Shown here piece after piece: positions 1 through 28,565 of a stretch of DNA of 64,000 bases. Position 1 is the first letter of the stretch, and every line of letters begins with the position of its first letter. The DNA lies in the NCBI GenBank assembly GCA_013265495.1, contig MU057584.1, positions 288,608 through 352,607 of the forward strand, given 5' to 3'. The notes under the pieces were generated by a model. The model made no database searches. It saw only the letters and a program-made list of their open reading frames with translations, and was not told the origin of the DNA. This DNA is from Vicugna vicugna. Lineage: Eukaryota. Position numbers and translations under genes: made by a program.

Positions 1-115
1 ACCCAAGGCAGCCTGGTCATTAGAAATGTGACAACTCAGGACGCGGGCAGCTACACCATGGTGCTGGAAACCAGCAAGGGACGCAGGAGTGTGACGGAGC
101 AGATACAGGTCAAGG
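1..115 (+). CDS. IGSF23: IGSF23 upstream exon (5'-truncated by window): C-terminal half of a CEACAM-type IgV/N domain
   Basis: Frame 1 reads TQGSLVIRNVTTQDAGSYTMVLETSKGRRSVTEQIQVK, matching the CEACAM N-domain pattern GSLxIxNVTxxDxGxYT. Phase-1 donor AAGG|GTGAGT at 116 joins in frame to the exon at 2819. Confidence 0.75.
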
Positions 116-2818: not shown

Positions 2819-3088
2819 CCAACTCGGACGGGGTGTTGCTGCTGACATTCCCAGGGAATACAAACGGTGTCATCTACAGTGACCTCAACTACTCAGTGAT
2901 CCTGCAGTGGGTGGCTTCCGTCAACCCTGAGCCTGTGCTACGATGGACCTTCAATGGGAAGCCTCGCGGGACTGGGGAGAAGCTAATTATTCAGAGGTTG
3001 TCCTTAGAGGATCTGGGCACCTACGTATGCTTCGCCGAGAATAGCCAGGCAGTGTCTTTCTCCAGGCCTGTGACTATCTCGCTGCCAC
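2819..3088 (+). CDS. IGSF23: IGSF23 Ig-like domain exon (270 nt, phase 1-1)
   Basis: Acceptor ttgcacag|CC, donor C|GTGAGT. Reads ANSDGVLLLTFPGNTNGVIYSDLNYSVILQWVASVNPEPVLRWTF...LGTYVCFAENSQAVSFSRPVTISLP, recognisably IGSF23 (LNYSVILQW, PEPVL.WTF, GEKL.I.RLS, PVTISLP). Confidence 0.92.
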
Positions 3089-5325: not shown

Positions 5326-5477
5326 AAGCCAATGTGGATCCCACAGACCCCGCACCTGTCCAGCCGGACCCCACTCTCTCCCTGTCAGGAGGATCTGCCA
5401 TCGCCCTCATCGTGGCTGCATTTGTGGGGATCGTGTTACTGATTGGAAGCATAGTCTTCACCTTAATCCAGAAGTGA
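5326..5477 (+). CDS. IGSF23: IGSF23 stalk + transmembrane exon, ending in an in-frame TGA
   Basis: Acceptor ccccag|AA (tandem CAG-AAG). Reads QANVDPTDPAPVQPDPTLSLSGGSAIALIVAAFVGIVLLIGSIVFTLIQK*; PDPTLSLSGGSAI is IGSF23-like. Candidate donors at 5474 and 5480. Confidence 0.88.
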
Positions 5478-5712
5478 AGGTACTTTCCGTCCCTCACTCC
5501 CATCCACTCAGCCCCCACAAGGCACAGAACTTGCCCTGCAGCGAGACTGAAGCCAGACCAACGGCCTCATCCCAAGGAGCTTTTAGCTCATCCAGAAAGG
5601 ATGACAAAAACAGAAAGGATGACACTGACCCCTGATGTGCCATCATCCATTCTCAAAGTGGCCTCTGGGGAACAAAGAGACAGGAGAGGGTTCTGGAGCT
5701 AGGGCCATCTCT

Positions 5713-7449: not shown

Positions 7450-7513
7450 GATAGACCGATGCTGACGTCATCCAGAAGGAACCAGCCTCGTCCAATCGGC
7501 TGTGACCTTGGAG
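7450..7513 (+). CDS. IGSF23: Probable IGSF23 short cytoplasmic/3'UTR exon (64 nt; ...IDRC*)
   Basis: Pyrimidine-rich stretch then cctgttag|G, strong donor GAG|GTGAGG at 7514. A phase-2 join gives (R/K)-I-D-R-C-stop (7463-7465), reminiscent of human RTDR... Confidence 0.5.
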
Positions 7514-7848: not shown

Positions 7849-7950
7849 GTGTGGCAGACGAAGAAATGGTTGAACCATTTTGGCTTTTGTTTTTTCAGTT
7901 TAAATAAACTGACTGAAAATAAAAAACAAATAAATGACTCTAGACAAAAG
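7849..7950 (+). other. IGSF23: Candidate alternative terminal exon of IGSF23 (CGRRRNG* then three AATAAA)
   Basis: Strong acceptor tttctctctctttcttgtag|G. Phase-2 frame gives C-G-R-R-R-N-G-stop (7871-7873). AATAAA at 7903, 7918 and 7929. Confidence 0.4.
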
Positions 7951-10489
7951 GAGATAATTGCAAGCAGATCTTAACCATGAATTTTTGTGTGGTACTCAAA
8001 AATACTGACAGCTGTTTTACAATATCCTGTTTCAAAATATACATTTTGTGGAACCCATTGTGAACATTTCTGTTCAGTGGATAATTAGAGTGGAATTTCA
8101 GTTATAGAATATGTGTATCTTCAGCTTTTATTGATGCTCCCAAATTGTTTTTCAATCAAAGTTATTGTATTTTCTCACAGTGGGTTCCACAGTGAGATAC
8201 TACACAGTGATGGAACAAATATGGATAAATCACAAAAACATGAAGTCTCATAAACACAGCTCCAAGAGAAGGTAGAGGTTATAGTACCATTTTTAATAAT
8301 TCAAGCATTACTAGAACTACTATCTGCTATTACATGACAGGATATGTTGGGTAGCAAAAAAAATAATACAATGTGCTTCTGAAGTGTGGGCACTTGTCTA
8401 TCAGCCCAAGAGGTATTACATCAGGAACATATTACGTCAGGAACAGGCAGTAGGGAGGGGAAAATCCCGGGGCTGGGGACAAGAGGAAGTTCCTGGGAGC
8501 TCCTTCCTCCTGGCTTCTGGATCATTTGTCTCTGGGATGTTCCCATCTTGTTGAGAACCCCAGGGACTGCTCTCATCTCCTCTTGCCATCTACCAATACC
8601 CCATCTGCTCATCTCACCAAATCCCTGGAGCCACATAAACAAGCAGTCTATAATTCTTGGAACTCTTGGGCTACAAGCAAAAGAAACTCACTGAAGTTGC
8701 TCAAGAAAAAATACAGGGAATTTAGAAATTTAAGGAATTTAACATAAGGACCCAGGAAGAGTTCCAGGAATTGAAGGCTTTATCAGTTAGCACATGCTGT
8801 GTAACAAACTATCCCCAAAAGTTAGTGACTTGAAACAACAGCCATTTATTTAGCATACAATTCTATAGGTTATCAGTGTGGGCCAGGGTCAGCTGGGTAG
8901 TTCTTCTGGTCTCTGCCAGGCTCACTTATGCATCTTTGGTCAGTTGGCAGGTTGCCTAGGGGCTGTCTGGACTAGGATAGCCTCAGCTGTGTCAACTAGC
9001 CACTCTTCTACGTCATCTCTCATTCCCTAGCAGGCAAACCCAAGCATACTCACAAGACAGACCAGGATTCCAAGAATGAGAGCAGAACTGCAGTGCCTCT
9101 TAGGGCCAAGGTTAAGAACAGGCACATATCACTTATGCCACATTCTACTGGCCAAAGAAAGTCACATGGTGAGGGGTAGGGAAATGACCTCATCCTTGAT
9201 GGGAAGAGACAAATCTGTGGCTATTCTTGTAATCTGCCACCAAAGCCTCGAGTGTGTGTTCAGAAAGCAGAAAAGCTGCTGGAACCAGGGCAGTTGCTCA
9301 CTGCCTCTCTCAGTCCCCCACCCCTCAGCCTTTGTAAACCTCTTCTCCAGGAACATAGAATTCACAGTTCTCTCTGCAAATGGGCACTCAATGCTTCTCA
9401 GTCCACATGGAGAAAGGCACCATCCCATAGCTTCCAAATCCCCAACGCTCATGTTCAGAGGAACAGCCCAACTTAGCCAGCATCCCTTTGCCTGATTTCT
9501 GAACCCCCTGGAGAAGGTATCTGATTGGCTCACTTGGGACAGGTGTCAATACAGGCCCCATCACTGTAGCTGGGGTAAGGGCAGAGATGTTCTGTACAAT
9601 CAGAGCTCCAGCTCCTTGTCTATGGGGACTCAGTACTCAGAAAAAAAAGAGGGAGAGTTTTTGGCTTATAAACTGGGCAGATACTCCAAAATATGTCTTC
9701 TACACATGCAGCTTATTTTTGCTCCTTTTCAGAGAAAAAAAAAACACCTTCCAAATGCAGAGAAGTGGGTAAAGGGTCTCAACCCTCAGAAATCCATGAT
9801 GCATTTGTAAATAAGATCCAACACTTTCTTTCACTGGAGAATCCTGACAGATGGTAGGCAAAGGGTACTGGTGTGACCCTAGGCGAGTCACTTACCTCTC
9901 TGAGACTCATCTGCTTAAAATGAGTATGAATAGTGCTCCTGTGTGGATATAGCTAACATTTGAGGGACATTCAGTGCTTCTGTGACACATAACCGTGTCA
10001 ACACAAAGCCACCTACCATATTACTACAATTAGCAATAATAGTAGCAGACCTGAGTTCAAATCTTGTCTGTTGAGGGCTGTCCATGTGCCACCCTCTACA
10101 CTAAATTTCTTACGTGTTACATCATCCTCACTGCACCCATTTAGGAAAGGAGAACCACCCCCATTTTACAGACAAAGCAAGTGAGTCTCAGACAGGGTAT
10201 GACAGGGTCATCACCACAGCACATGGTGGGGCTGGTCTCCAAGGCAGGCTCCCTGGCTCTGAAATCCCTGTTTCCAATCACTCCACTGCTCTGTTGCTCC
10301 CTCCCTGGAGCTGAAACCTCCTTCTCATCCTCTCATGGGCTTCCCACCTCCTATGTCGAGGAAATGTCATTGTGCTCATGTACATAAGATAAAAGTGAGG
10401 CTCAGAGAAGGCAAGTGATTTGTCCAAGGTCACACAGCCACATGAGATGCCAACTCAAGTCTACTCAATTCCAAAGCCTGTGCCTTAGA

Positions 10490-10908: not shown

Positions 10909-11140
10909 AGGAGAAGTTAGTCGTTTGCTGCCGGGGTGGTGATGGAGAGAGCTGGTTCCTGCAGCTCCTAGTCTATCTGCGTCTCAGAGGTGACGCTACA
11001 GCTACTGCTTGGCCACCAGCCAGCCTCCAGCTGTCCTCTGGCCACGGCTGCAGCAATACTTCTTGCGCTTTGCAACAGCTGAGAGTACTGTGACATCCTC
11101 CCTCCACTAAAAATAAACTGCACATTTCGTCAGAGATCTC
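10909..11140 (+). other. IGSF23: Candidate terminal (3'UTR) exon of IGSF23
   Basis: Long polypyrimidine tract cttcttcttcccacttccctccattgtcag| followed by non-repetitive-looking sequence and AATAAA at 11112-11117. Confidence 0.45.
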
Positions 11141-11925
11141 CTGACCACTCCTGTTATAAATTCAGTCCCTGGGGTGAACTCGCTCATCGTACCGTTCTGC
11201 TTTATAGCACTTATGACATTGTGTCATTAAATATTTATTGGTGTGATTATTTAACATTTATCTCATCTATTAGACTCGCAGCTCCATGAATGCCAGACTT
11301 ATATCTGTTGTACAGCATGTGCTCAATAAATGTTTGTTGAATGAATAAGAGACCAAAACCACACAACTAGGAAAACTCAAAGGCTCAGAAATGAAAGCAC
11401 CGACTGAATACCAAACCTTTCTCCAAGCTGGAGTTTAACCGGAATAACTTAACTCAAACTCCTTTCACTTTTTCTCTGTCTCAGAAAAACTGGGTCAGGC
11501 ATCCTGAGGCCTCTACCCTAACCCCAGGGTGGGGTGAATAGTCATCTGGCCTCAGTAGAATAGCCCAACCTCGTCGGCAGCTGTGATAGAGATTGCCCTC
11601 AGAGCCCCAGAATTCATTCTCTTCTCTCGCCATAGTAACAGAATCCTTAATTTTAGCTGGGTACATGATGTCCAAGGGGAAAAAAAATTACACTGTCAAT
11701 AAAACGTGAGAAGTGTTACGTGTGACTTACAGAACATGTCCTTAAGGTGAGGGAGCATCCTTTCCTGCTGGCAGGAATGGGAACATGATGGCTGGAACCG
11801 AGCAGCCATATTGGAGCATGAGGTGAATGTCTCAACTACCATTTTTGATAGACTGGCAGTGGGCCAAGATCTATATTAAGAATTCTGGGAACCACCCATG
11901 CCCCCAAGAAGGAATACCTGTATCC

Positions 11926-12529: not shown

Positions 12530-15500
12530 TTAGTAAGTAAATTTTCTCTAAATTCCAGTATTTCTAGAAAACATAATTGTATATGCTAGAGTGGGAAGGA
12601 GGAATAAAAGACATATAACAGAGAACAAATAATTACTAAAGCCATTCATTCATTCATACATTCACTCATTCAACACACCTTTCTCTGGCACCTGGTCTGT
12701 GTGGAGCCCTGTGCTGGGCAGTACTGGGAACCCAAAGGTGGCCGTGAGAGCCACACCCTGCCCTCCCAGGGCTCACAGTCCAGTGGGAGAGACAGAAGCA
12801 CCCCCAGATAGTGACAACCCAGAGTAGTCTGGGCTGGGACATGGGAGCCCAGAAGGGACTCCTGATCCAGCCTGGGGGATCAGGAGGGCATCCTGCAGAG
12901 GGGCCAGCTGTCCTGGAGAACACACTGAGATGATGAACACGAGCAGCCACATCTCCTGAAGGTGATATTTACCAGACACTGCGCTCAAGGGCTTTAATGC
13001 ATCCTTTCCGTTTATTTCCCCAAACCCTGGAAAGTGGATGCTATTATTAGTTCCATTTCACAGATGAGGAAGTTGAATTGTCACTGCCTAGCTGTGAGTT
13101 GCACAGCCCTGGGATCTGCCTCTGTGGAACTTAAAGCCCAGTGGGTGACACAAATCTATCCCTAGAGAGTGACACATCAGAGTGGGCAGGGCTGGGACAG
13201 TGGGGCTCAGGGGGCTCTGGGAGACCAGAGGAGGGATTTGCCCAGCCCGGGGCAGGGAGGTTCCTGGAAGGCTTCCTGGAGAAGGGGATGGCTCAGCCAT
13301 GACCTAAAGTGGGAGTAGCCAGTGAAGAACAGAGGGAAAATGTTCCAGCCTTAAGGTGAGCAAACATGATCTTTTTAGGACTACAAGGGTTTCCGCCTGG
13401 CTGACGTGTAAAGGGGGAGAGGAAGAGACAGCAGACTTTCATCAGGGGCCAAGTCACGCAGGGTTCCTGGACTCTTTCCTGCAAATGACAGGGATGTGCT
13501 GAAGGGTGTGGCTCTGATTACTCACAGTGGGTAGAAGTAGACTGAGAGGATGTGGGTTTCATTTCCTTCCTTGGGTTGTGAGAGGACTGTAGGATCTGGA
13601 AGGGGAGAACCGAGGGGAGCAACCATTGTGAGGTACCACTACACCCCAAAAGATATGAGGGTTGTAGGGGGGCGCTGGTGGGAGGTGAGAGAGAGGACAT
13701 GCCCCCTCTGGTAGCTCTCGGGGAAGGACAGGCAGGTGGCTGTTATTTGGGGCTTTCTCTGCCAGTTTTCTCCCACCCAGCCTCAGAGTACAGAAGGTAA
13801 AAGCTCTGCCCTCGCCAACCCCACCACCCCATTCTCTATCCAGTCCACGACCGCACCACAAAGAGGACAGGACAGGGGTTTTCATCACTGTTTTCCACGT
13901 GAGGAATATGAGATTTAGCTGCCATGAGGTCTTTGCCCTGCACAAAACTCTGCGGCTCAACACAAAACTGTTAATCAATTATACTTCAATTAAAAAAGAA
14001 AAAACAACCCTATGGCTCTCTGCTGCCCACGTGCCTCCTGGTCAGGATGCACAGCAAGGTGCTACAAGCCCCAGGACGCCAGAAATAATATCTGCTGTTT
14101 GTTGAGCAGAAAAATAAACAACATTTTTAGCCATATAACTCATTTCTAAATAACTGATTTAACCATCACCTCATGTTTTCATGATCCTCTATTTTACAGG
14201 TGAGAAAAAGGAGGCAAGAGAATCATACAGGTTGCTTAGAATCACCAGCTGTTAGTTGGTGAAGATGGAATTTGAACCAAGGGAGTCACACTCAGAAGCC
14301 CCCACCTCATCGTTCTCAGCCTCCATCTCTCTCCCCCTCCCCTCTTCTTTCTTCCTTTCTCTCTCTCCCCTTCCCTCCTTCTCTTTCTCTCCCCACCCTC
14401 CTGCCCAGCCTCCAGGTTCCTACGTCAAACCCTTTGTGACAAACCTTCACATCTGAAATTGTAAAAGCTTCAGTTCACTACCATGAGCCACCCTGGGTAG
14501 GAAACCCCGCCATACTCCAACTTTGCTGGCAAGAGCACTGAATGACAATTTGGCACCATTCTCCGAGACCACAAATACGCATGCCCTTTGACCCAGCAAA
14601 TTCACTTCTAGGAACCTATGGAACTGATACTGTCGCACACGTGTGAAATGGCGTGGATGTGGTTACTCAGAGAAGGATCGTTTGCCAATGCTAAGAGTTG
14701 GAAACATTTGAAACGGCTATCTGCTGAGGACAGGTTCAAAATTTTTGCTGTGTTCATCCAAAGGAATGCTCCATGGCTATGAATAAGCAAACGAATGCAT
14801 GAGACGGCTTGTTTTGTCCTTTTATGGAAAGATCACCGAGATACATTGTCAAGTAAAAAGCAGAAAGAGGCAGAATGATGCTACGATTTATTGTTTCCAA
14901 TGTGGGAGAGAAGAATAAGGAAATATTTTCCCCATTGCTTGATGATACAAGCTTCCAGATGATTCTCCTGGATGCAGAAGTTAGAAAACCAAGACTTTCA
15001 TGGGATGAGCCCCAAGGAATTGTAACAGGCCCGTTGGAGACATCCATTCACTTATTTATTCTTTCAATAGATATTTCAGCACTTGTGTAAAGAAAAATGT
15101 CCAGAACTGGTCCCAACCCTCAAGGAATTTAGAATCTTGACAGGGAGACGCACAGAAGCAAGCAGTTATGTCCAAAAGCCACACTTGCTTTTCCTTCCAA
15201 ACCTACCACTTCTGACATCGTCCCCATTTCAGTCAAAGGCCCTCCTCCTCCCGCCAGGTCAGGACCTTGGGGTCCTCGGTGAGAAAGAGAGGTTTCCCTC
15301 ATGCCCTGCATCCAATTTGCTGGCAAATCCCTGGGTCTCTACCTTCAAAATACATTAGAATCCAACCGCTTGTTCTCTCCAACCCCACCACACCCAGTGG
15401 TGAGCCTCCATCACCTCCCACCTGGACCACTGCAGTCACTTCCCCACTGGCTTCAACCCTCAACCCCCTACAGCCTGTCCCCAACATGGCAGCCAGAGGG

Positions 15501-20773: not shown

Positions 20774-21133
20774 AGACTGAGGTGGTCAGTGTACTGGCCC
20801 CTGCCCAGGTGCACGGCTTCCTGGGCGACACCGTGAAGCTGCCATGCAAATTACAGCTCATGGAGGATAAAGTGACAGTGACTCAGGTGACTTGGACCCG
20901 GCAGAAGCCGACGGAGGCCATCCGCAGCGTGGCAGTCTTCCACCCTACCCAGGGCCCCAGTTTCCCCGAGCCCGGGCGGTTGGAGTTTGTGGCCGCCAAG
21001 CCAGGAGAGGAGCTGCGGGACGCGTCGCTGGCCTTGCGGGGGTTGGGCGCAGAGGATGAGGCCAACTACACCTGCCAGTTCGCCATGTTCCCTCAAGGCG
21101 GCAGGAGCGCCCGAACCTGGCTCCGGGTGCTGG
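20774..21133 (+). CDS. PVR: PVR exon 2 (IgV D1)
   Basis: ccacag|AG ... G|GTGAGC. Reads GFLGDTVKLPC..VTQVTW..AVFHPTQGPSF..RLEFVAA..ELRDASL..EDEANYTCQFAMFPQG, typical of CD155 D1. Confidence 0.96.
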
Positions 21134-22671
21134 GTGAGCCGGGATGACTGGGGACGAAAGGGAAGGGCGTGGCGCAGGGGTGGGGTGGGGTGCGGTACGT
21201 AGAGAGGTAAGCACAGGGTGGGGATAGCCGGAAGGGAGTGAGATTCCCTCCAGAGCAGTGATTCTGCGGGCACAAAAGGATGTAGAGAAATGATGGGGGC
21301 AGGGGGGATGCAGAGGGGGAGGTTAGAAAGGGGAGGGGCTGGAGGACCAGAAGAGAGTAGCGATCATGGGGAGTAAGACCTTGGGAGACTGAGAGCAGAG
21401 GGGATGGAGAGGCTGGGAATGCTGTGTGGGGGAAGGTGGGGGCTGATGGGAGTACGGGGTGGGGGGAGAGGGAGGGGTCTAGGAAGCCCGGGGACCTGGG
21501 TTTGGACCCCAGCTAGCCACTACCAGCCTGGGCAAGGGGTTTCCTCTCAGAACCTCCTTTCCTCATCTGTAAAATAGGCTTAGTAAAAATACTGCTGCCT
21601 TCAGAAAGCTATCCTGAGGGTCCTGGGAGTTTATCAGGTGAATTGCTTAGAACAGAAGCCCATGTGAGCTAGCGACTACTCCCTTTGGGGAGGAAGAGTT
21701 GAAATAGACAGACTGGGAGGCAGGGATCCTGATACCCCGTAGTGGAGGGCTTTCCCCGTGGGGCCAGTTGCCCTTGGGCATTGTCATGGAATCCTGCGGT
21801 CATTTTCCTGAGCACCAGGGAGTCAGGCCTTCCTCTTGGCAATTGAGTACAATTGTTCAAGTTCCTCAGCTGTGAAAGGGAGCTCACTCTGACGATGAAT
21901 AAGAGCTGACATTACCTTTTCACTTAGATGCCAGGAACTGTTCCAAGCCTTGCATGAATGACTCATGAAAGGTTAAGTGCCTGGAACAATGCCTGGCATA
22001 CAGCACCCAGACAAAGGCAACTCTCATCATTTCAGAAAACTTGGGACTTCAGGACTGATGGTTTAGGATGAGGGTAAAACAGAACCAGTGAGTCAAGTTA
22101 AAGAGAAATCTTCAGTAACAATAACTCAGGTACTGATGAGAAAGGAACCAAGTGAAGCCCCAGGTCAGGGAATCACCAAAATGATGATTAAGAAACAGTC
22201 GAGGTAGTTTTGGAGTCAGATAGACCTCGTGTAAAAGCCCAGCTCTGCCGCTGTAACTTTGGGCCAGTCATTTTCCCTCTGAAACTCCAGGGCACAGCTC
22301 AGCCCTCCTCTCTTCCAAGAAGCCCTCTGCAACCACCTACATACCACCCCCAGATTCAGGCACCCCTTCTGGGCTCCCCCATCCCAGCCTTGCTCACTCA
22401 GAGTCATCACTGTCTAGGGAAGTCTCTCTTCCCCTTGGACCGCCCACCCCAGGAAGGCAAGGATGAGGCTGTCTCAGTCATTGCTGGGTCCTCAACGCTG
22501 CCCATCACAGAACCAGCCAATGGATTCAATTACCAATAATAAATAAATAAATAGGGCATTTATTATGTGCCAAGGACCGTTTTAAGAGCTTTACCTGCAT
22601 TTTCTCATCACCAATAACTCTATCATCATCCCCAGTGGACAGACAAGGAAACTGACTTGCCCAAGGCCACC

Positions 22672-22674
<3 letters not shown>

Positions 22675-22720
<46 letters not shown>
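22675..22720. repeat. (TA)n microsatellite
   Basis: About 22 perfect TA units. Confidence 0.95.
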
Positions 22721-22723
<3 letters not shown>

Positions 22724-22724
22724 C

Positions 22725-22860
22725 ACATTATTTTTATTCGTATTTATTTGGGGGAGTAATTGGGTTTTTGTTTATTTATTTTTAATGGAGGTACTGAGGA
22801 TTGAACCCAGGACCTTATGTGTGCTAGGCATGCGCTCTACCACTGAGCTACACCCTCCCC
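22725..22860 (-). mobile_element. tRNA-Ala-derived SINE (vic-1-like) next to a (TA)n microsatellite
   Basis: Reverse-complement head at ~22785-22860. Confidence 0.88.
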
Positions 22861-22984
22861 AACCCAAGAGCTGAGATTTGAACCTGGCCATTCTGTACCC
22901 TCAATTAGCCACCCTCCTCTGCTGCTGAGATGTTTAAGTGACTTCAGGCAAGGAGTGACCCGTCTCTTTCACTCCTATCCCCAG

Positions 22985-23290
22985 CCAAACCCCAGAACAA
23001 GGCTGAGACCCAGGAGGTCCCACTCAGCCCACTCGGCCCAGAGCCTGTGCCTGTGGCCAGCTGTGTCTCCACGGGGGGTCGCCCGCCTGCCCACATCTCC
23101 TGGTCCTCGCACCTGGACAGGAAGGCAAATAAGAGCCAGGTGCCAGGGCCCCTGCCCGGCACCTTCACCGTCATCAGCCTCTTAACCTTAACACCTTCAA
23201 GCCAGATGGATGGCGAGAACGTCACGTGCAGAGTGGAGCATGAGAGTCTGGAGGAGCCGGCGTTGCTGCCTGTGATCCTCAGCATGCCCT
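22985..23290 (+). CDS. PVR: PVR exon 3 (IgC D2)
   Basis: ccccag|CC. Reads [48 protein letters not shown]; donor T|GTGAGT. Confidence 0.96.
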
Positions 23291-23334
23291 GTGAGTGTGC
23301 CCTGGTGGAGGGACCCCGCCCCCACCCTCCTCCT

Positions 23335-24160
23335 GCCACCGTCTACACTGACTTCCCGGGCCACTTTCAACATTACCCCATCATCCACACTAGCTTCCCC
23401 TGACTATCGTCTACACCCCCTACACCATCTACACTGGCTCTCCTGGGCCACAAACAACACTGTCTTTCATTGCCTAAACCAACAGCTAAGGCCACAGTCC
23501 ACATTCCTGTCCGGGTTGTCTACCTGGCTGTCCTGGCCACTATCTCCACCAACGCCCCACACTGGTTTCCTTGAGCCCAATCTACACACAGTGCCTACAT
23601 CTGCCTCCCTGGGCAACTGTCCACACCGACCGTGTCCACATGGCTGCACACTTCCCCATGGTCTACACCGACTCCCTTGTTCGTTTTCTATACTGCCTTA
23701 CCTTTGTCTACACTGGCTTCCCTGGGTCCCAGAAGCACTGCCTCCATTGTCTACACCAGTTAGGCCATCAGCTGTGGGGAGTTGTCACTGTTCCCCACGT
23801 TGCCTAAAGTGGTTCCCCTGACCACGCTACATTGACACCCCACATTTTCTACACTGGTTCTCCTAGGATGTCTCTCACACTGACCCGCAACACTGCCTAC
23901 ACTGGCTCCCTTAGAGAACTGTCCCCCCAGTGTAGTCTCCACTCCCCTCTGCCCCAATGTGGTCTATACTGGCTGGTCTAGGGTCTGTGCCCCCATCGTT
24001 GTCTGTACTGAATAGACCCTCCCAGGCAGCTGCTGCACTGATTCCCTCAGGCACTGTCTACACCGGACCCCTTCAACATTGCCACTGGGTCTGAGAGAGG
24101 AGGGGATCTCTACTGACTCCCCCACACACAAACACACACATTCTGTCTCACTGGCCTTCC
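23335..24160 (+). repeat. Degenerate tandem array of GTCTACACTG-like motifs in PVR intron 3
   Basis: About 20-25 variants at irregular, mostly 20-60 bp spacing. Confidence 0.75.
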
Positions 24161-24588
24161 TCCTGGGGATTTTGAATAGTCTTCCCTGTCGCTCACTTTT
24201 GGGTTGGATAAGCAGCAGGCTGAAAAAACATCATCCAGGATTCTTTCCTGCAGGACTTGTCAGAGCCTTGAATATGCTCCTGTGCATTCTGAGCGCCCAG
24301 GAGGTCCAAGGCACGCCAGGACCTGGCTTTACCCAGGAAAAGGAGTAGAGAGAAGCAGGTCCTGAGATGCCCTCCCTGTGCCTCACCACCTCTCACCCTC
24401 CGGAGGACTCCCCAGGCTTCTATTCTCAGAGGGAACCCACTGCCCCAGACCCCTTCCAGGCCTCTCCATCTTGGGCCCTTCCCGAAACCCACTGAGGCCT
24501 TTTCCAGTTGTGACATGAATTCCAAATATCTTTAGGCTGACTATGTGAAGGCTCCCTGTCTCTGAGCCTATGTGTCTGTTTCCCCCAG

Positions 24589-24706
24589 ATTCCCCTGAGG
24601 TTTCCATCTCTGGCTATGATGACAACTGGTACCTTGGCCTCCGTGGGGCCACCCTGCACTGTGACGTCCGCAGCAAACCAGAGCCCACGGGCTATAACTG
24701 GAGCAC
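24589..24706 (+). CDS. PVR: PVR exon 4 (D3 first half, 118 nt)
   Basis: cccccag|[42 protein letters not shown]; donor AC|GTGAGT. Confidence 0.96.
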
Positions 24707-25274
24707 GTGAGTCCTGGGTCGGAAGAGGGAGGGGCTGGGGACCCAGATTCCCCAGGATCCTGAGAAATGAGGGGGTGGGGGACCTGGACTCCTAGGTCTG
24801 AGGGAGGAGGGGTGTAGGCAGGAAAGTAAAGAGAGCAAGAAGTCAACTTGGGGCCCCCAGGAAAATTTCTGTCTCGCATGCATAGAGTTTACGAGGTGGT
24901 TTAGTCCAGATGAGATGACATACCGGCTGTGTGCCAAGTACTTAGCCTCAGCCCGCACAATCCCCATATTCTGGGCACAATCCACACTATCACCATGTCG
25001 GGTTAAAGACCAGCTGGGCCCCAGCAGCTGCCGTCATTGGCCAGGGCACATAGCCACGGAGGCGCAGAGGTGACTCCAATCAGCGCCTGGATCCAAACTC
25101 GATCCTCTTAACCCCTGGGCTGGGCCACCTGCCCAGCTACCTCGTGTAACCTGCTCTGTCCTTGCTGATGGAACAAGTCCTGTCCCTATTCTCTGGATGA
25201 GGAAATTGAGAGGCGGAGCAATCAGAAGGTTTCCTCAAATTCATGCGGACACTGGGGTTAAAAGTGAGGGAAGA

Positions 25275-25412
25275 GGGGGAGGGTATAGTTCAGTGGTAGA
25301 GTGTGTGCTTAGCATGCATGAGGTCCTGGGTTTAATCCCCAGTACCTCCGTTAATAAATAAACCTAATTACCTCCTCCCTAAAAAAAGTTAAAAAAATAA
25401 AAAGCATTTTTT
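25275..25412 (+). mobile_element. tRNA-Ala-derived SINE (vic-1-like)
   Basis: Head plus tail; TSD aagtgagggaaga on both sides. Confidence 0.9.
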
Positions 25413-26269
25413 TAAGTGAGGGAAGATAAAGGCAAAGGGGTAAATTGTTTTTATATAATTTTTATTGGACCTTTTTCCTCACTACAAAAATAACTGGCAA
25501 GCATTGTGGAAACTTTAGACAATATGGTTATTGCAAAAAGAAAACAGCACCGAAGGTCAAGCATGCCCAGCCACCTCCAGGAATAGCCGCTGCGACCCCT
25601 TGTAATATGTCCTTCCTGTCTTTTTTTTTCCCCTCAATGTTTCTACACAAAAATTGTGCTGTACATACAATTTTGAAACTTCTCTGTTTTGTGAACATCC
25701 TTCCATGTCAAAGCCTGTAGATCCATTTTCCCCAACATTTTATCAGGAGATTTTTCAAACATACAGAAAAGTTGTAAGAATTGTCCAGCAAACACTCAAA
25801 AACCCACACGTGGATTCTCCCATTAATATTTTCCTGTTAGTTGTTTTTATCACATTCCTGCCCATCGGTTCATCCCTCTGTCCATCCATCAAACAGTCTT
25901 TATCTTTCATGTTTCAAAATACCCACAACCCCTCCTTCATGTTGCTCGGATTCCATCCTAGGTGATACCTTCAATGACTTAACCAATCCCAAGTGGGGAT
26001 AGAGGCGCTTTCCCATTTTCAACTATGCAGATGTCATGGTGGAGACCAACCGTGTCTGTCCACCTCCATGGATACCCACAGTAGGGTCTTGATGGTGAAA
26101 GGAACTGCTGGCCAAAGGTTTCCAACTGGTGTTGACAGCCAGCCTTTATTTTCCTGCCCCAAAACACCACAGTTCAGGCTTACAAGCCACAGGGCGGGGT
26201 TTCCAGGCCCGCTCTGCCAAATGCCCAAATCCGTGCCTCTGTCTCCTCCATCCCTTACGCCAGTGTTTC

Positions 26270-27240
26270 CTGATGGCTGTGGGCCAGACGCTGTTGACCC
26301 ACATACCTTGGTAAATAAAATAGAGCAAACTCCGTCCCCTCTTGGAGTTCCCATTTGGGTAAAGGAGAGAAACAATAAACAAGATAATGTTGTCAAGGAC
26401 GGTAGATAAAGGTAGATGAAGGCCGTGGAAAAGATAAAGCGGGGAGAGGAGGATGAGGAAGGGGGTCACTGCATTTGAAATAGAGTGGCCCAGGAAGGTG
26501 TCATAAAGGTGACATCCGAGCAGAGGCCTGAAAGAGGTGAGGGTGAACAGTGTGGTACTGGTGGGAAGAGCATTCCACACACAGGGAACAGAACATGCGA
26601 AGACCCTGGGATGGGAGCATAACTGGAGTGTTTGAGGATCTACTGTTGGCCACCGTGGATAGCTAAGAGCAAAGGGGAGAGTAACAGACAGTGTGATCAG
26701 TGGCATCAGGGGGCCAGCGTGTATGGGACCCATACCCATGGTAAGGACTTTTGTTTTATTCTGAGTGAGATTATAGAGGTGGACTTTGGATAGAGGAGGG
26801 ACTTGAGCTGACTTAGTTCTGATAAGATCTCTCAGGCTGCAGAATAAGGGACAGAGTGGGGTGGGGTGAGGGTAGAAATAGGGAACCCCATGAGAAGGTG
26901 GCCGCAGTGGACCAGGAGTAGGGGGCACAGCCCTGGGTGGTGGCTGCGGTCCTTTGCACTCACCTCTAGATCCACAGTGGCCTCCCTGTGGATCCTCAAA
27001 TACTTCAATTATGTTCCCATTCCAGGGTCTTCGCATATGCTGTTCCCTATGCCTGGAATGCTCTTCCCACCAGTTCGCACACTGGTTACTCTCACCCTTG
27101 CCTCCTTCAGGCCTCTGCTCAGGATTCTGTATATCCAGTTGGATTCTGGATAGATTTTGAAGGTGGGGCAGACAGGATCTGCTGATAGGCTGGACGTGAG
27201 TGTGAGCAGAAGAGTCAGGAGAACTCCAGGTTGCTCTCAG
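26270..27240 (-). mobile_element. L2 fragment containing an internal inverted duplication
   Basis: Antisense L2 motifs (gggaagagcattcca...gggaacag, taaggacttt...ttattctgagtga, ggattctggatagattttgaagg). Confidence 0.7.
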
Positions 27241-27356
27241 GGGCTATCACAGATGTCATGAGGGCTTCTGCGTTCCCAGCATACAGTAAGTGCTCAATCA
27301 CCTGTCACTCTAGGCCTCCACCAGAGGCCCCTTCCTCACCCATGTGTCTCTCCCAG

Positions 27357-27505
27357 GTCCACGGGACCCCTGCCACCCTCTGCTGTGGCCCAGGACACCC
27401 AGCTCCTGATCCACACCGTGGATGAATCCATCAACACGACTTTCATCTGCCTTGTCACCAACGCCCTGGGGACGGGCCAGGCAGAACTGACAGTCCTGGT
27501 CAGAG
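27357..27505 (+). CDS. PVR: PVR exon 5 (D3 second half, 149 nt)
   Basis: tctcccag|[50 protein letters not shown]; donor G|GTGAGG. Confidence 0.95.
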
Positions 27506-28565
27506 GTGAGGCGCCTCCTGGGTGGGGAGAGCAGAAGGACCATAGAAGGAAGTCACGGGAGGATTCTCTCTGGGGGAAGAGTTTAGAAGTGGTCCCTGGT
27601 AAGGGAGCCCCTCAGCCACAAGAATGCTCTCTGACTCCCATCCTTCCCCTAAGCTCCCTCATGGAAGGTCCAACAGGACCAGCTTTACTCTCTGTTAACT
27701 CAACATCTGTGCCACGGGAACCACGGTACCGCCACCAGGACTCAGCCGCTCTGCAAACCTGGCTGGGGTAGCTGGGTGATGCCCCTTTCACTGGGACTCA
27801 GGAAGGCTTTCCAAGTGTATCAGGCAGAACTCTACCATTCAGAATTGCTAGAAGCACAACTCAAAATAGTGAAGCAAAAATGAGATTTAAAAAAAAATTT
27901 TTCTCCATTATTTCCTTCACCACCATATTTGAGTATTATTACCCTTCAGTAGTATTATATTTTAATATAATATATAAATAATAAAGTTCATCCTTTGAAC
28001 ATGTACACTTTTTTCCTTAGTATATTTTCGAGGTTTTACAGCCATCAGGACTACCCAATTCCAGAACAAAAAAATGAGACTTTATTGAAAATGTGCCTCC
28101 AAGGATGGTTAGATCCAGGTGCTCCAACTGTGTAACCCAGGAGCTTTTCTTTACCTCTCTTGTCTGTGCTTTTATCTATGCTGACTTCATTCTCTGGAAG
28201 GCTCTCCCCTCAGGAAGGTGAGATGGTCCTCAGCTCTCAGCCCAATTCAGTAATCCCAAGGGAAAATACACCACTTTCAATAACTCTAGCCACAGTCTCA
28301 GGGCTGGCTCTCACTGGCTCAACTTGGGTCACAGACCCCGCTATGAACCAATCACCGCAGCCAGGGAGAATGGAATGCCCTGACAGGCCGGGCCCAGGTC
28401 AAAGTCCCATCCTAGGAACCAGAGGATGGTGTCAAATCCACCTGAACCATATAGACTAAGGGAAGCAGAGCGGTAGCTTCCTTTAAAAATGAGGAGTAAT
28501 GTTTTGGGGGCAGGTGAAAACCCCAGAAGTCTCTCAATTTAATTCTCTGCTTCCTTTTCCTGCAG

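Follow-up and report, generated by a model that had tools for sequence, protein, structure and literature searches.

The DNA analysed here, a 64,000-nucleotide stretch of the genome of Vicugna vicugna (contig MU057584.1, positions 288,608 to 352,607; referred to as the window), carries the gene IGSF23 (table 1). Both the IgC exon and the full protein match proteins named IGSF23, and exons of PVR follow downstream (20776-27516), which bears out the gene name given in the initial annotation. With the upstream exons taken from L002, the reading frame is intact and encodes 269 amino acids, which match the IGSF23 of right whale at 81% and that of hippo at 78%. Pfam recognizes a V-set and an Ig domain (the V-set at residues 41-120 of the close relative P0038), and the best PDB matches include chains of CEA and CEACAM1. 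In a tree of IGSF23 proteins, the vicugna protein and its close relatives, which fall into two camelid sequence types grouped with a support of 100/99, form their own branch within a cetartiodactyl clade of equal support (100/99), apart from pig, ruminants, hippo and whale. Exon plan, stalk, helix, donor and the position upstream of PVR are all alike in the IGSF23 of other mammals (e.g. human P0148, pig P0045 and mouse P0022).

Table 1. Features of the IGSF23 locus, in positions of the window.
Feature	Position	Strand	Remarks
IgV-like (N) exon, 3' part	1..115	+	leader exon and 5' part lie upstream of the window (L002)
IgC-like exon	2819..3088	+	three database models splice from a GT within it (2997)
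TM exon	5326..5479	+	Pro-rich stalk, small residues, 24-residue hydrophobic helix, Gln-Lys, stop, 2 nt
TGA stop	5475..5477	+	codon is Leu in ruminants, hippo and whale; common to both camelid-type sequences
Upstream GT (GAA/GTGAAG)	5474..5479	+	weak; no use seen in the proteins compared
Conserved donor (AAG/GTACTT)	5480..5485	+	same AG/GTAC in orthologue models that read into the intron
Candidate cryptic exon (initial annotation)	7450..7513	+	strong donor, poor pyrimidine tract, no protein support
Start of ancestral tail exon, now 3' UTR	7849..7880	+	acceptor paired with donor 5480 in P0040; homologous to the last exon of pig
Dispersed repeat within ancestral tail exon	7881..8352	unassigned	75% identity to at least two further copies in the genome
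Stranded 3' half of ancestral tail exon	8361..8412	+	reads Met-Cys-Phe-stop; old donor next at 8413
Homologue of last exon of primate and right-whale models	9351..9470	+	right-whale acceptor at 9351 intact
Candidate last exon (initial annotation)	10909..11130 (end approximate)	+	AG acceptor, AATAAA at 11112; no protein support
Alternative downstream exon	14201..14262	+	joined to donor 5480 in P0020

The TM exon reads ATC CAG AAG TGA AG up to its end at 5479, i.e. an in-frame TGA (5475-5477) directly follows the codons for Ile-Gln-Lys (IQK), and two GT dinucleotides, both in phase 2, are found at 5474-5475 and 5480-5481, just as had been read initially. Close relatives in two clusters provide six proteins (P0002, P0037, P0038, P0020, P0039 and P0040) of the two sequence types. 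P0038 differs from vicugna IGSF23 by two residues and P0002 by seven; P0002, P0037 and P0038 all end at IQK, and in P0020, P0039 and P0040 the reading frame of the TM exon is shifted, as the same bases would give. Because both types share the IQK end, the TGA is older than the split between them. P0002 is also present in a Logan assembly, where its contiguous four-exon frame suggests a spliced RNA that keeps the stop, the alternative being a contig that happens to end there.

At the level of proteins, the stop position was compared across 58 rows, with one model per named genus including the two camelid types; intron read-through and fusion models were left out, and most of the IGSF23 proteins compared are computed gene models. 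Among the 56 other genera this position is occupied by Leu in 29, Gln in 12, Ile in five, His in three, Lys in two and Ser, Val or Arg in one each, and two proteins have already ended before it; in the eight other cetartiodactyl genera it is Leu in six and Lys in the two suids. The nonsense change is thus specific to the camelid lineage, as had been suspected. An origin by TGG to TGA, the example initially offered, finds no counterpart in these data: Trp occupies the position in none of the 56 genera, and the nearest ancestral residue is Leu. A single T to G change from TTA to TGA would be the shortest route to the stop. The truncated protein is already given in NCBI and UniRef records, and our literature search on IGSF23 yielded no report of this stop or of a loss of the tail, although gene-loss tables in supplements could mention the stop.

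How much of the protein does this stop remove? A basic tail that ends in or next to a Cys (human LRTDRQRIGICS) is seen in 32 of the 58 rows, including human, carnivores, most bats, pangolin, hedgehog and tenrec, whereas 22 rows end at most six residues past the camelid end, and four show other tails. The short-tailed rows comprise the two camelid types with zero residues, eight cetartiodactyl genera (among them pig, ruminants, hippo and whale) with four residues each, nine rodent genera with zero to four, two strepsirrhines and the sloth, where cases resting on a single genus may be model artefacts. Rat-type proteins from Logan and NCBI end three to nine residues past the camelid end, and the mouse lemur and mouse proteins are zero to three residues away from it. 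The camelid stop therefore trims four residues relative to the sister lineages and nine relative to its own read-through, and the conserved Cys end is not among them. Of the proposed contrast between tailed and tail-less forms, one half stands, in that the camelid protein lacks a cytoplasmic domain; the contrast itself, however, is small, with the sister lineages keeping just four residues more.

The downstream sequence reveals what became of the tail exon. Both tails that had been spelt out initially, IDRC-stop via 7450 and CGRRRNG-stop via 7849, are correctly translated, but the exons at 7450 and 10909 are not borne out: none of the 209 proteins with an in-frame TM exon continues into either of them, and it is 7849 that is the homologue of the tail exon. 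A TM-skipping isoform of pig (P0048) maps to 7858-7911 (E 7e-4) and one of bear (P0120) to 8386-8630 (E 9e-17). The bear tail exon, as reconstructed from two frames, aligns with its first part to 7855-7872 and with its later part to 8361-8380, in short and diverged alignments that are tentative; their overlap could be a target-site duplication. This site was given by gapped alignment, and an ungapped scan for the bear tail exon with 15 and 19 bases gave no clear site. In an anchored DNA test over 736 AG sites, 7849 ranked second for bear and tied for first for pig, a result that is modest taken alone. The exon at 7450, whose frame ends in Arg-Cys-stop, had for this reason also been considered as the counterpart of the human tail exon; this was rejected, as the frames of bear and pig fall on 7849 and 8361-8630, and 7450 reached only 9/18 and 7/14 in the anchored test. 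Between the two halves of the tail exon lies the dispersed repeat, with AATAAA signals at 7903, 7918 and 7929. Because the pig frame runs into this repeat, its insertion is older than the split between pig and camelids. The third codon of the tail exon is TGA in pig, a codon for Arg in bear and AGA in the window.

Overall, these data suggest that camelid IGSF23 is most likely a stable tail-less type I membrane protein. The fixed nonsense change completes the loss of a tail that was already broken by the insertion of a repeat, and would be the final stage in the decay of a part that the protein can do without. As protein comparison shows, the ancestral placental tail is basic, with 12 residues and a terminal Cys, and comes mostly from a small exon behind the TM exon. 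In the common ancestor of pig and camelids, as the pig, bear and window alignments suggest, a repeat of 470 nt would then have inserted into this tail exon and cut off the Cys end, and the poly(A) signals brought along by the repeat would have turned the split exon into the last exon. At the protein level, pig, ruminants, hippo and whale stop at the third codon of this exon, presumably as a later event; camelids have instead turned the Leu codon located two bases before the TM-exon donor into TGA. The product would be a precursor of 269 amino acids consisting of signal peptide, IgV and IgC domains, stalk, a full TM helix and a terminal Gln-Lys.

As regards the stability of the mRNA, PMC1854916 describes the rule that nonsense-mediated decay (NMD) is triggered when a stop precedes the last junction by more than 50-55 nt. 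The TGA is 2 nt away from this junction with 7849 or 14201 as the last exon, 66 nt with splicing via 7450 and 10909, and 566 nt with the old donor at 8413 used instead of the poly(A) signals. Of these, the path to 7849 appears to be the best supported, with homology and two shifted-frame models as its basis (proteins that end at the stop are blind to the next exon). With donor 5480 joined to 7849 as the last exon and the stop 2 nt above the junction, the mRNA would therefore escape NMD. The distances of 66 nt for the TGA and 48 nt for the IDRC stop, on which an NMD switch had been proposed, are arithmetically right given an exon at 7450-7513, but the argument loses its base with 7450 and 10909 devoid of support and 7849 being the homologous exon.

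A tail-less protein would signal only via partners, as the stub-tailed orthologues must. This matters since osteopetrosis and a decrease of MAPK signalling in osteoclast precursors have been linked to loss of human IGSF23 (PMC6869366). Should the gene be kept without a real tail in camelids, other hoofed mammals and rodents, the protein could not signal through its own cytoplasmic part in these animals, which has consequences for experiments on mouse and rat IGSF23 and would call for a partner chain in contact with the ectodomain or the helix. For gene-loss screens, this stop would be no ground to call camelid IGSF23 a pseudogene.

Alternatively, the gene could be under relaxed selection or dying in camelids, with the stop being one lesion among several and the mRNA being in part removed by NMD or giving rise to secreted or unstable forms. 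This is unlikely, but several features are consistent with it: camelid-type proteins miss six residues near the end of the signal peptide, three models of one of the two sequence types (type A) use the internal donor at 2997 and thereby lose the reading frame of the TM exon, a GT is still present at the old donor (8413), no more than 49% of the camelid protein is covered by human IGSF23, and the African manatee is reported to carry IGSF23 as a pseudogene (PMC11292518). Against relaxation, the frame of 269 amino acids is intact in both types, which show seven differences, no frameshift and an unchanged helix, and a full-length product is represented in a Logan assembly. Within the TM exon, type A and the window are distinguished by three changes that are silent in the main frame, one change in the stalk and none in the helix; this excess of silent changes hints weakly at constraint (P 0.06 to 0.13).

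Some of these features are worth describing in their own right. The GT at 2997 (GAG/GTTGTC) is spliced to the TM exon out of frame in P0020, P0039 and P0040, which belong to one type-A annotation; the product would have half an IgC domain and no helix and would perhaps be secreted, and is either a real isoform or an artefact of the models. The six residues missing from both camelid-type proteins, in comparison with hippo and whale, belong to a Cys-Ser-Ala-Ser stretch near the likely signal-peptidase site (L002, 9700-9730), for which a later Ser-Ser-Ala could substitute. Residue 50, in the N exon (L002), is Cys in vicugna and Arg in both relatives; this Cys of the IgV-like domain is perhaps unpaired and a private variant. 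The IgV-like domain is unstable elsewhere too, with IGSF23 models of 192 amino acids in human (P0148, 49% coverage), 235 in fox (P0126) and 239 in mouse (P0022), as compared to 269-287 in most other placentals.

Another question is whether the hydrophobic end of the protein still serves as a membrane-spanning helix or whether the stop has made it a GPI signal, in some or all of the protein, as is the case for CEACAM5-8 of primates and CEACAM60 of pig. GPI anchoring of IGSF23 had been suggested by analogy to the former, and we consider it rather improbable. Only two residues remain behind the helix, and conversion by a stop in the TM exon has occurred more than once in the related CEA family, with GPI anchoring of pig CEACAM60, which has an internal stop, demonstrated by phospholipase release (PMC13212111). 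In addition, C-terminal helices with very short tails can insert inefficiently (10.1101/843326), so some doubt about TM anchoring has to be kept. The camelid helix, however, is complete. Its best 19-residue Kyte-Doolittle mean is 3.02, a value above those of human (2.35) and bear (2.04) and exceeded only by pig in the set of ten proteins scored, and it ends in Gln-Lys before the stop, i.e. the charged cytoplasmic flank is kept. By a loose rule, five omega candidates with small residues are found at residues 238-244, 25 to 31 residues from the end. The omega rule asks for small residues at omega and omega+2 and no Pro at omega+1, and a polar spacer is expected between omega and the hydrophobic end of a GPI signal. 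At all five candidates, by contrast, the stretch from omega+3 to omega+9 is hydrophobic (mean Kyte-Doolittle 1.47 to 3.3). Thus, the small residues that had been pointed out ahead of the helix do fit the omega rule, but the same run is present in full-tailed orthologues such as human; it is therefore not new in camelids and not diagnostic.

The comparison with the CEACAM proteins points in the same direction. IGSF23 shares with the GPI-anchored CEACAM5/6/7/8 and pig CEACAM60 its membership in a related Ig family, the nonsense change in the TM exon and the small residues before a hydrophobic run. In GPI-anchored CEACAMs, however, the stop lies inside the helix, so that the helix is shortened and the charged residue bordering the cytoplasm is lost (PMC5856374), whereas IGSF23 has a whole helix of 24 residues, a Gln-Lys end and no polar spacer, so that the analogy to CEACAM5-8 does not carry. 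Also, GPI signals are described as moderately hydrophobic (10.1101/843326), in contrast to the value of 3.02 for the camelid helix. Closer counterparts are horse CEACAM45, 53 and 54 and pig CEACAM62, i.e. CEA-like Ig proteins with a TM-exon stop after a complete helix and with cytoplasmic exons turned into 3' UTR (PMC5856374, PMC13212111). The three horse proteins have no GPI prediction, and tagged CEACAM54 was found on the cell surface (PMC5856374); pig CEACAM62, with three cytoplasmic residues, is treated as membrane-spanning on the basis of prediction, its cDNA not having been cloned (PMC13212111). These horse and pig proteins are species-specific paralogues of CEACAM1 that have shed an ITIM tail, whereas IGSF23 is single-copy, and its ancestral tail had 12 residues, no Tyr motif and was broken before the stop arose. 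Where IGSF23 and GPI are mentioned together, the available text of PMC4079198 and PMC9578707 ties no GPI anchor to IGSF23. A GPI anchor, if shown, would represent a new independent conversion from a TM anchor.

A broader version of this idea is that the basic Cys-ended tail was lost independently at least four times in placentals (in cetartiodactyls in two further steps, in rodents, in strepsirrhine primates and in the sloth) and that, where the end is zero to three residues past the helix (camelids, grasshopper mouse and mouse lemur), the helix may now act, at least partly, as a GPI signal. Taken as a whole, this scenario is speculative and improbable. If true, a single-copy gene of intestine and osteoclasts, not one of the CEACAM1 paralogues, would have switched convergently from a TM to a GPI anchor, with the splitting of the tail exon by a repeat insertion as the trigger in cetartiodactyls. 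In the model for grasshopper mouse the C-terminal run is purely hydrophobic and no charged residue follows (orthologues P0024, P0035 and P0022 compared), and, if this model is right, grasshopper mouse may be a better candidate for GPI anchoring than camelids.

Returning to the tail-less membrane protein as the preferred reading, the two GTs at the end of the TM exon require consideration. They had been interpreted as a switch, in which donors 6 nt apart choose between a tailed form (upstream GT) and a tail-less or NMD-prone form (downstream GT with the exons at 7450 and 10909). Indeed, both GTs are present in the same phase, the donor of the 7450 exon is strong (-10.2 kcal/mol against U1) and 10909 offers an AG and an AATAAA; moreover, alternative 5' splice sites in tandem, at a spacing of 3 to 6 nt, form a genuine, albeit minor, class of alternative splicing, as described in PMC2423196. 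IGSF23 resembles this class in that its exon end carries two closely spaced GTs, but the second GT has the score of a pseudo-donor. By U1 pairing energies and consensus counts, which are crude stand-ins for MaxEntScan, the donor at 5480 has 7/9 consensus positions and pairs with the 5' end of U1 at -5.6 kcal/mol, whereas the GT at 5474 has 5/9, without the G at -1 and the G at +5, and pairs at -3.8 kcal/mol. Two other GTs inside the TM exon outscore it, and 35% of the sampled GTs of the window pair with U1 as well as it does. Nor is the spacing unusual: of the 3101 GT sites on the plus strand of the window, 159 (5.1%) are preceded by another GT at a distance of 6 nt, in line with the background frequency of GT, and tens of thousands of constitutive exons have unused neighbouring GTs (PMC2423196).

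The protein models agree with this picture. Where models of whale, pig and ruminants extend into the intron, the next residues are Arg-Tyr-Leu, as in the window, which indicates that AG/GTAC is conserved, and the camelid-type proteins P0040 and P0020 have the junctions 5479>7849 (14/17 residues match) and 5479>14201 (17/19), respectively. None of the six camelid-type proteins, all of which were read, uses the GT at 5474, although it may be used at a low level. A search for other tails among 19 candidate short C-terminal fragments found none at E <= 1e-6. Words of the TM exon occurred in 20 of 24 sequencing runs, at a share of 0.46 in 14 runs and of 0.91 to 1.00 in six, and were not used as evidence on donors. 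Furthermore, a tail rescued by 5474 would be without the ancestral Cys end, a choice between 66 and 48 nt would require the weak donor at 5474 together with two unsupported exons, and use of the donor at 8413 would produce an NMD target from either TM donor and therefore again no switch. Such a switch is thus very unlikely. That the stop is an assembly error or a private variant is practically out of the question, with P0002, P0037 and P0038 coming from three differing contigs and two sequence types and sharing the same final residue.

Beyond the tail exon, the 3' end of IGSF23 differs widely between annotations. The sheep and goat models P0015 and P0073 join the TM exon to the equivalent of 11655-11780 in the window, and P0020 joins it to 14201-14262. 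In the exon at 9351-9470, the AG expected at 9378-9379 reads AA, and the upstream acceptor at 9351, which the right-whale model uses, is intact. In three fallow-deer models (P0009, P0011 and P0062), IGSF23 is fused in frame to PVR exons (corresponding to 1-27516 of the window), which could represent either read-through transcripts or annotation merges.
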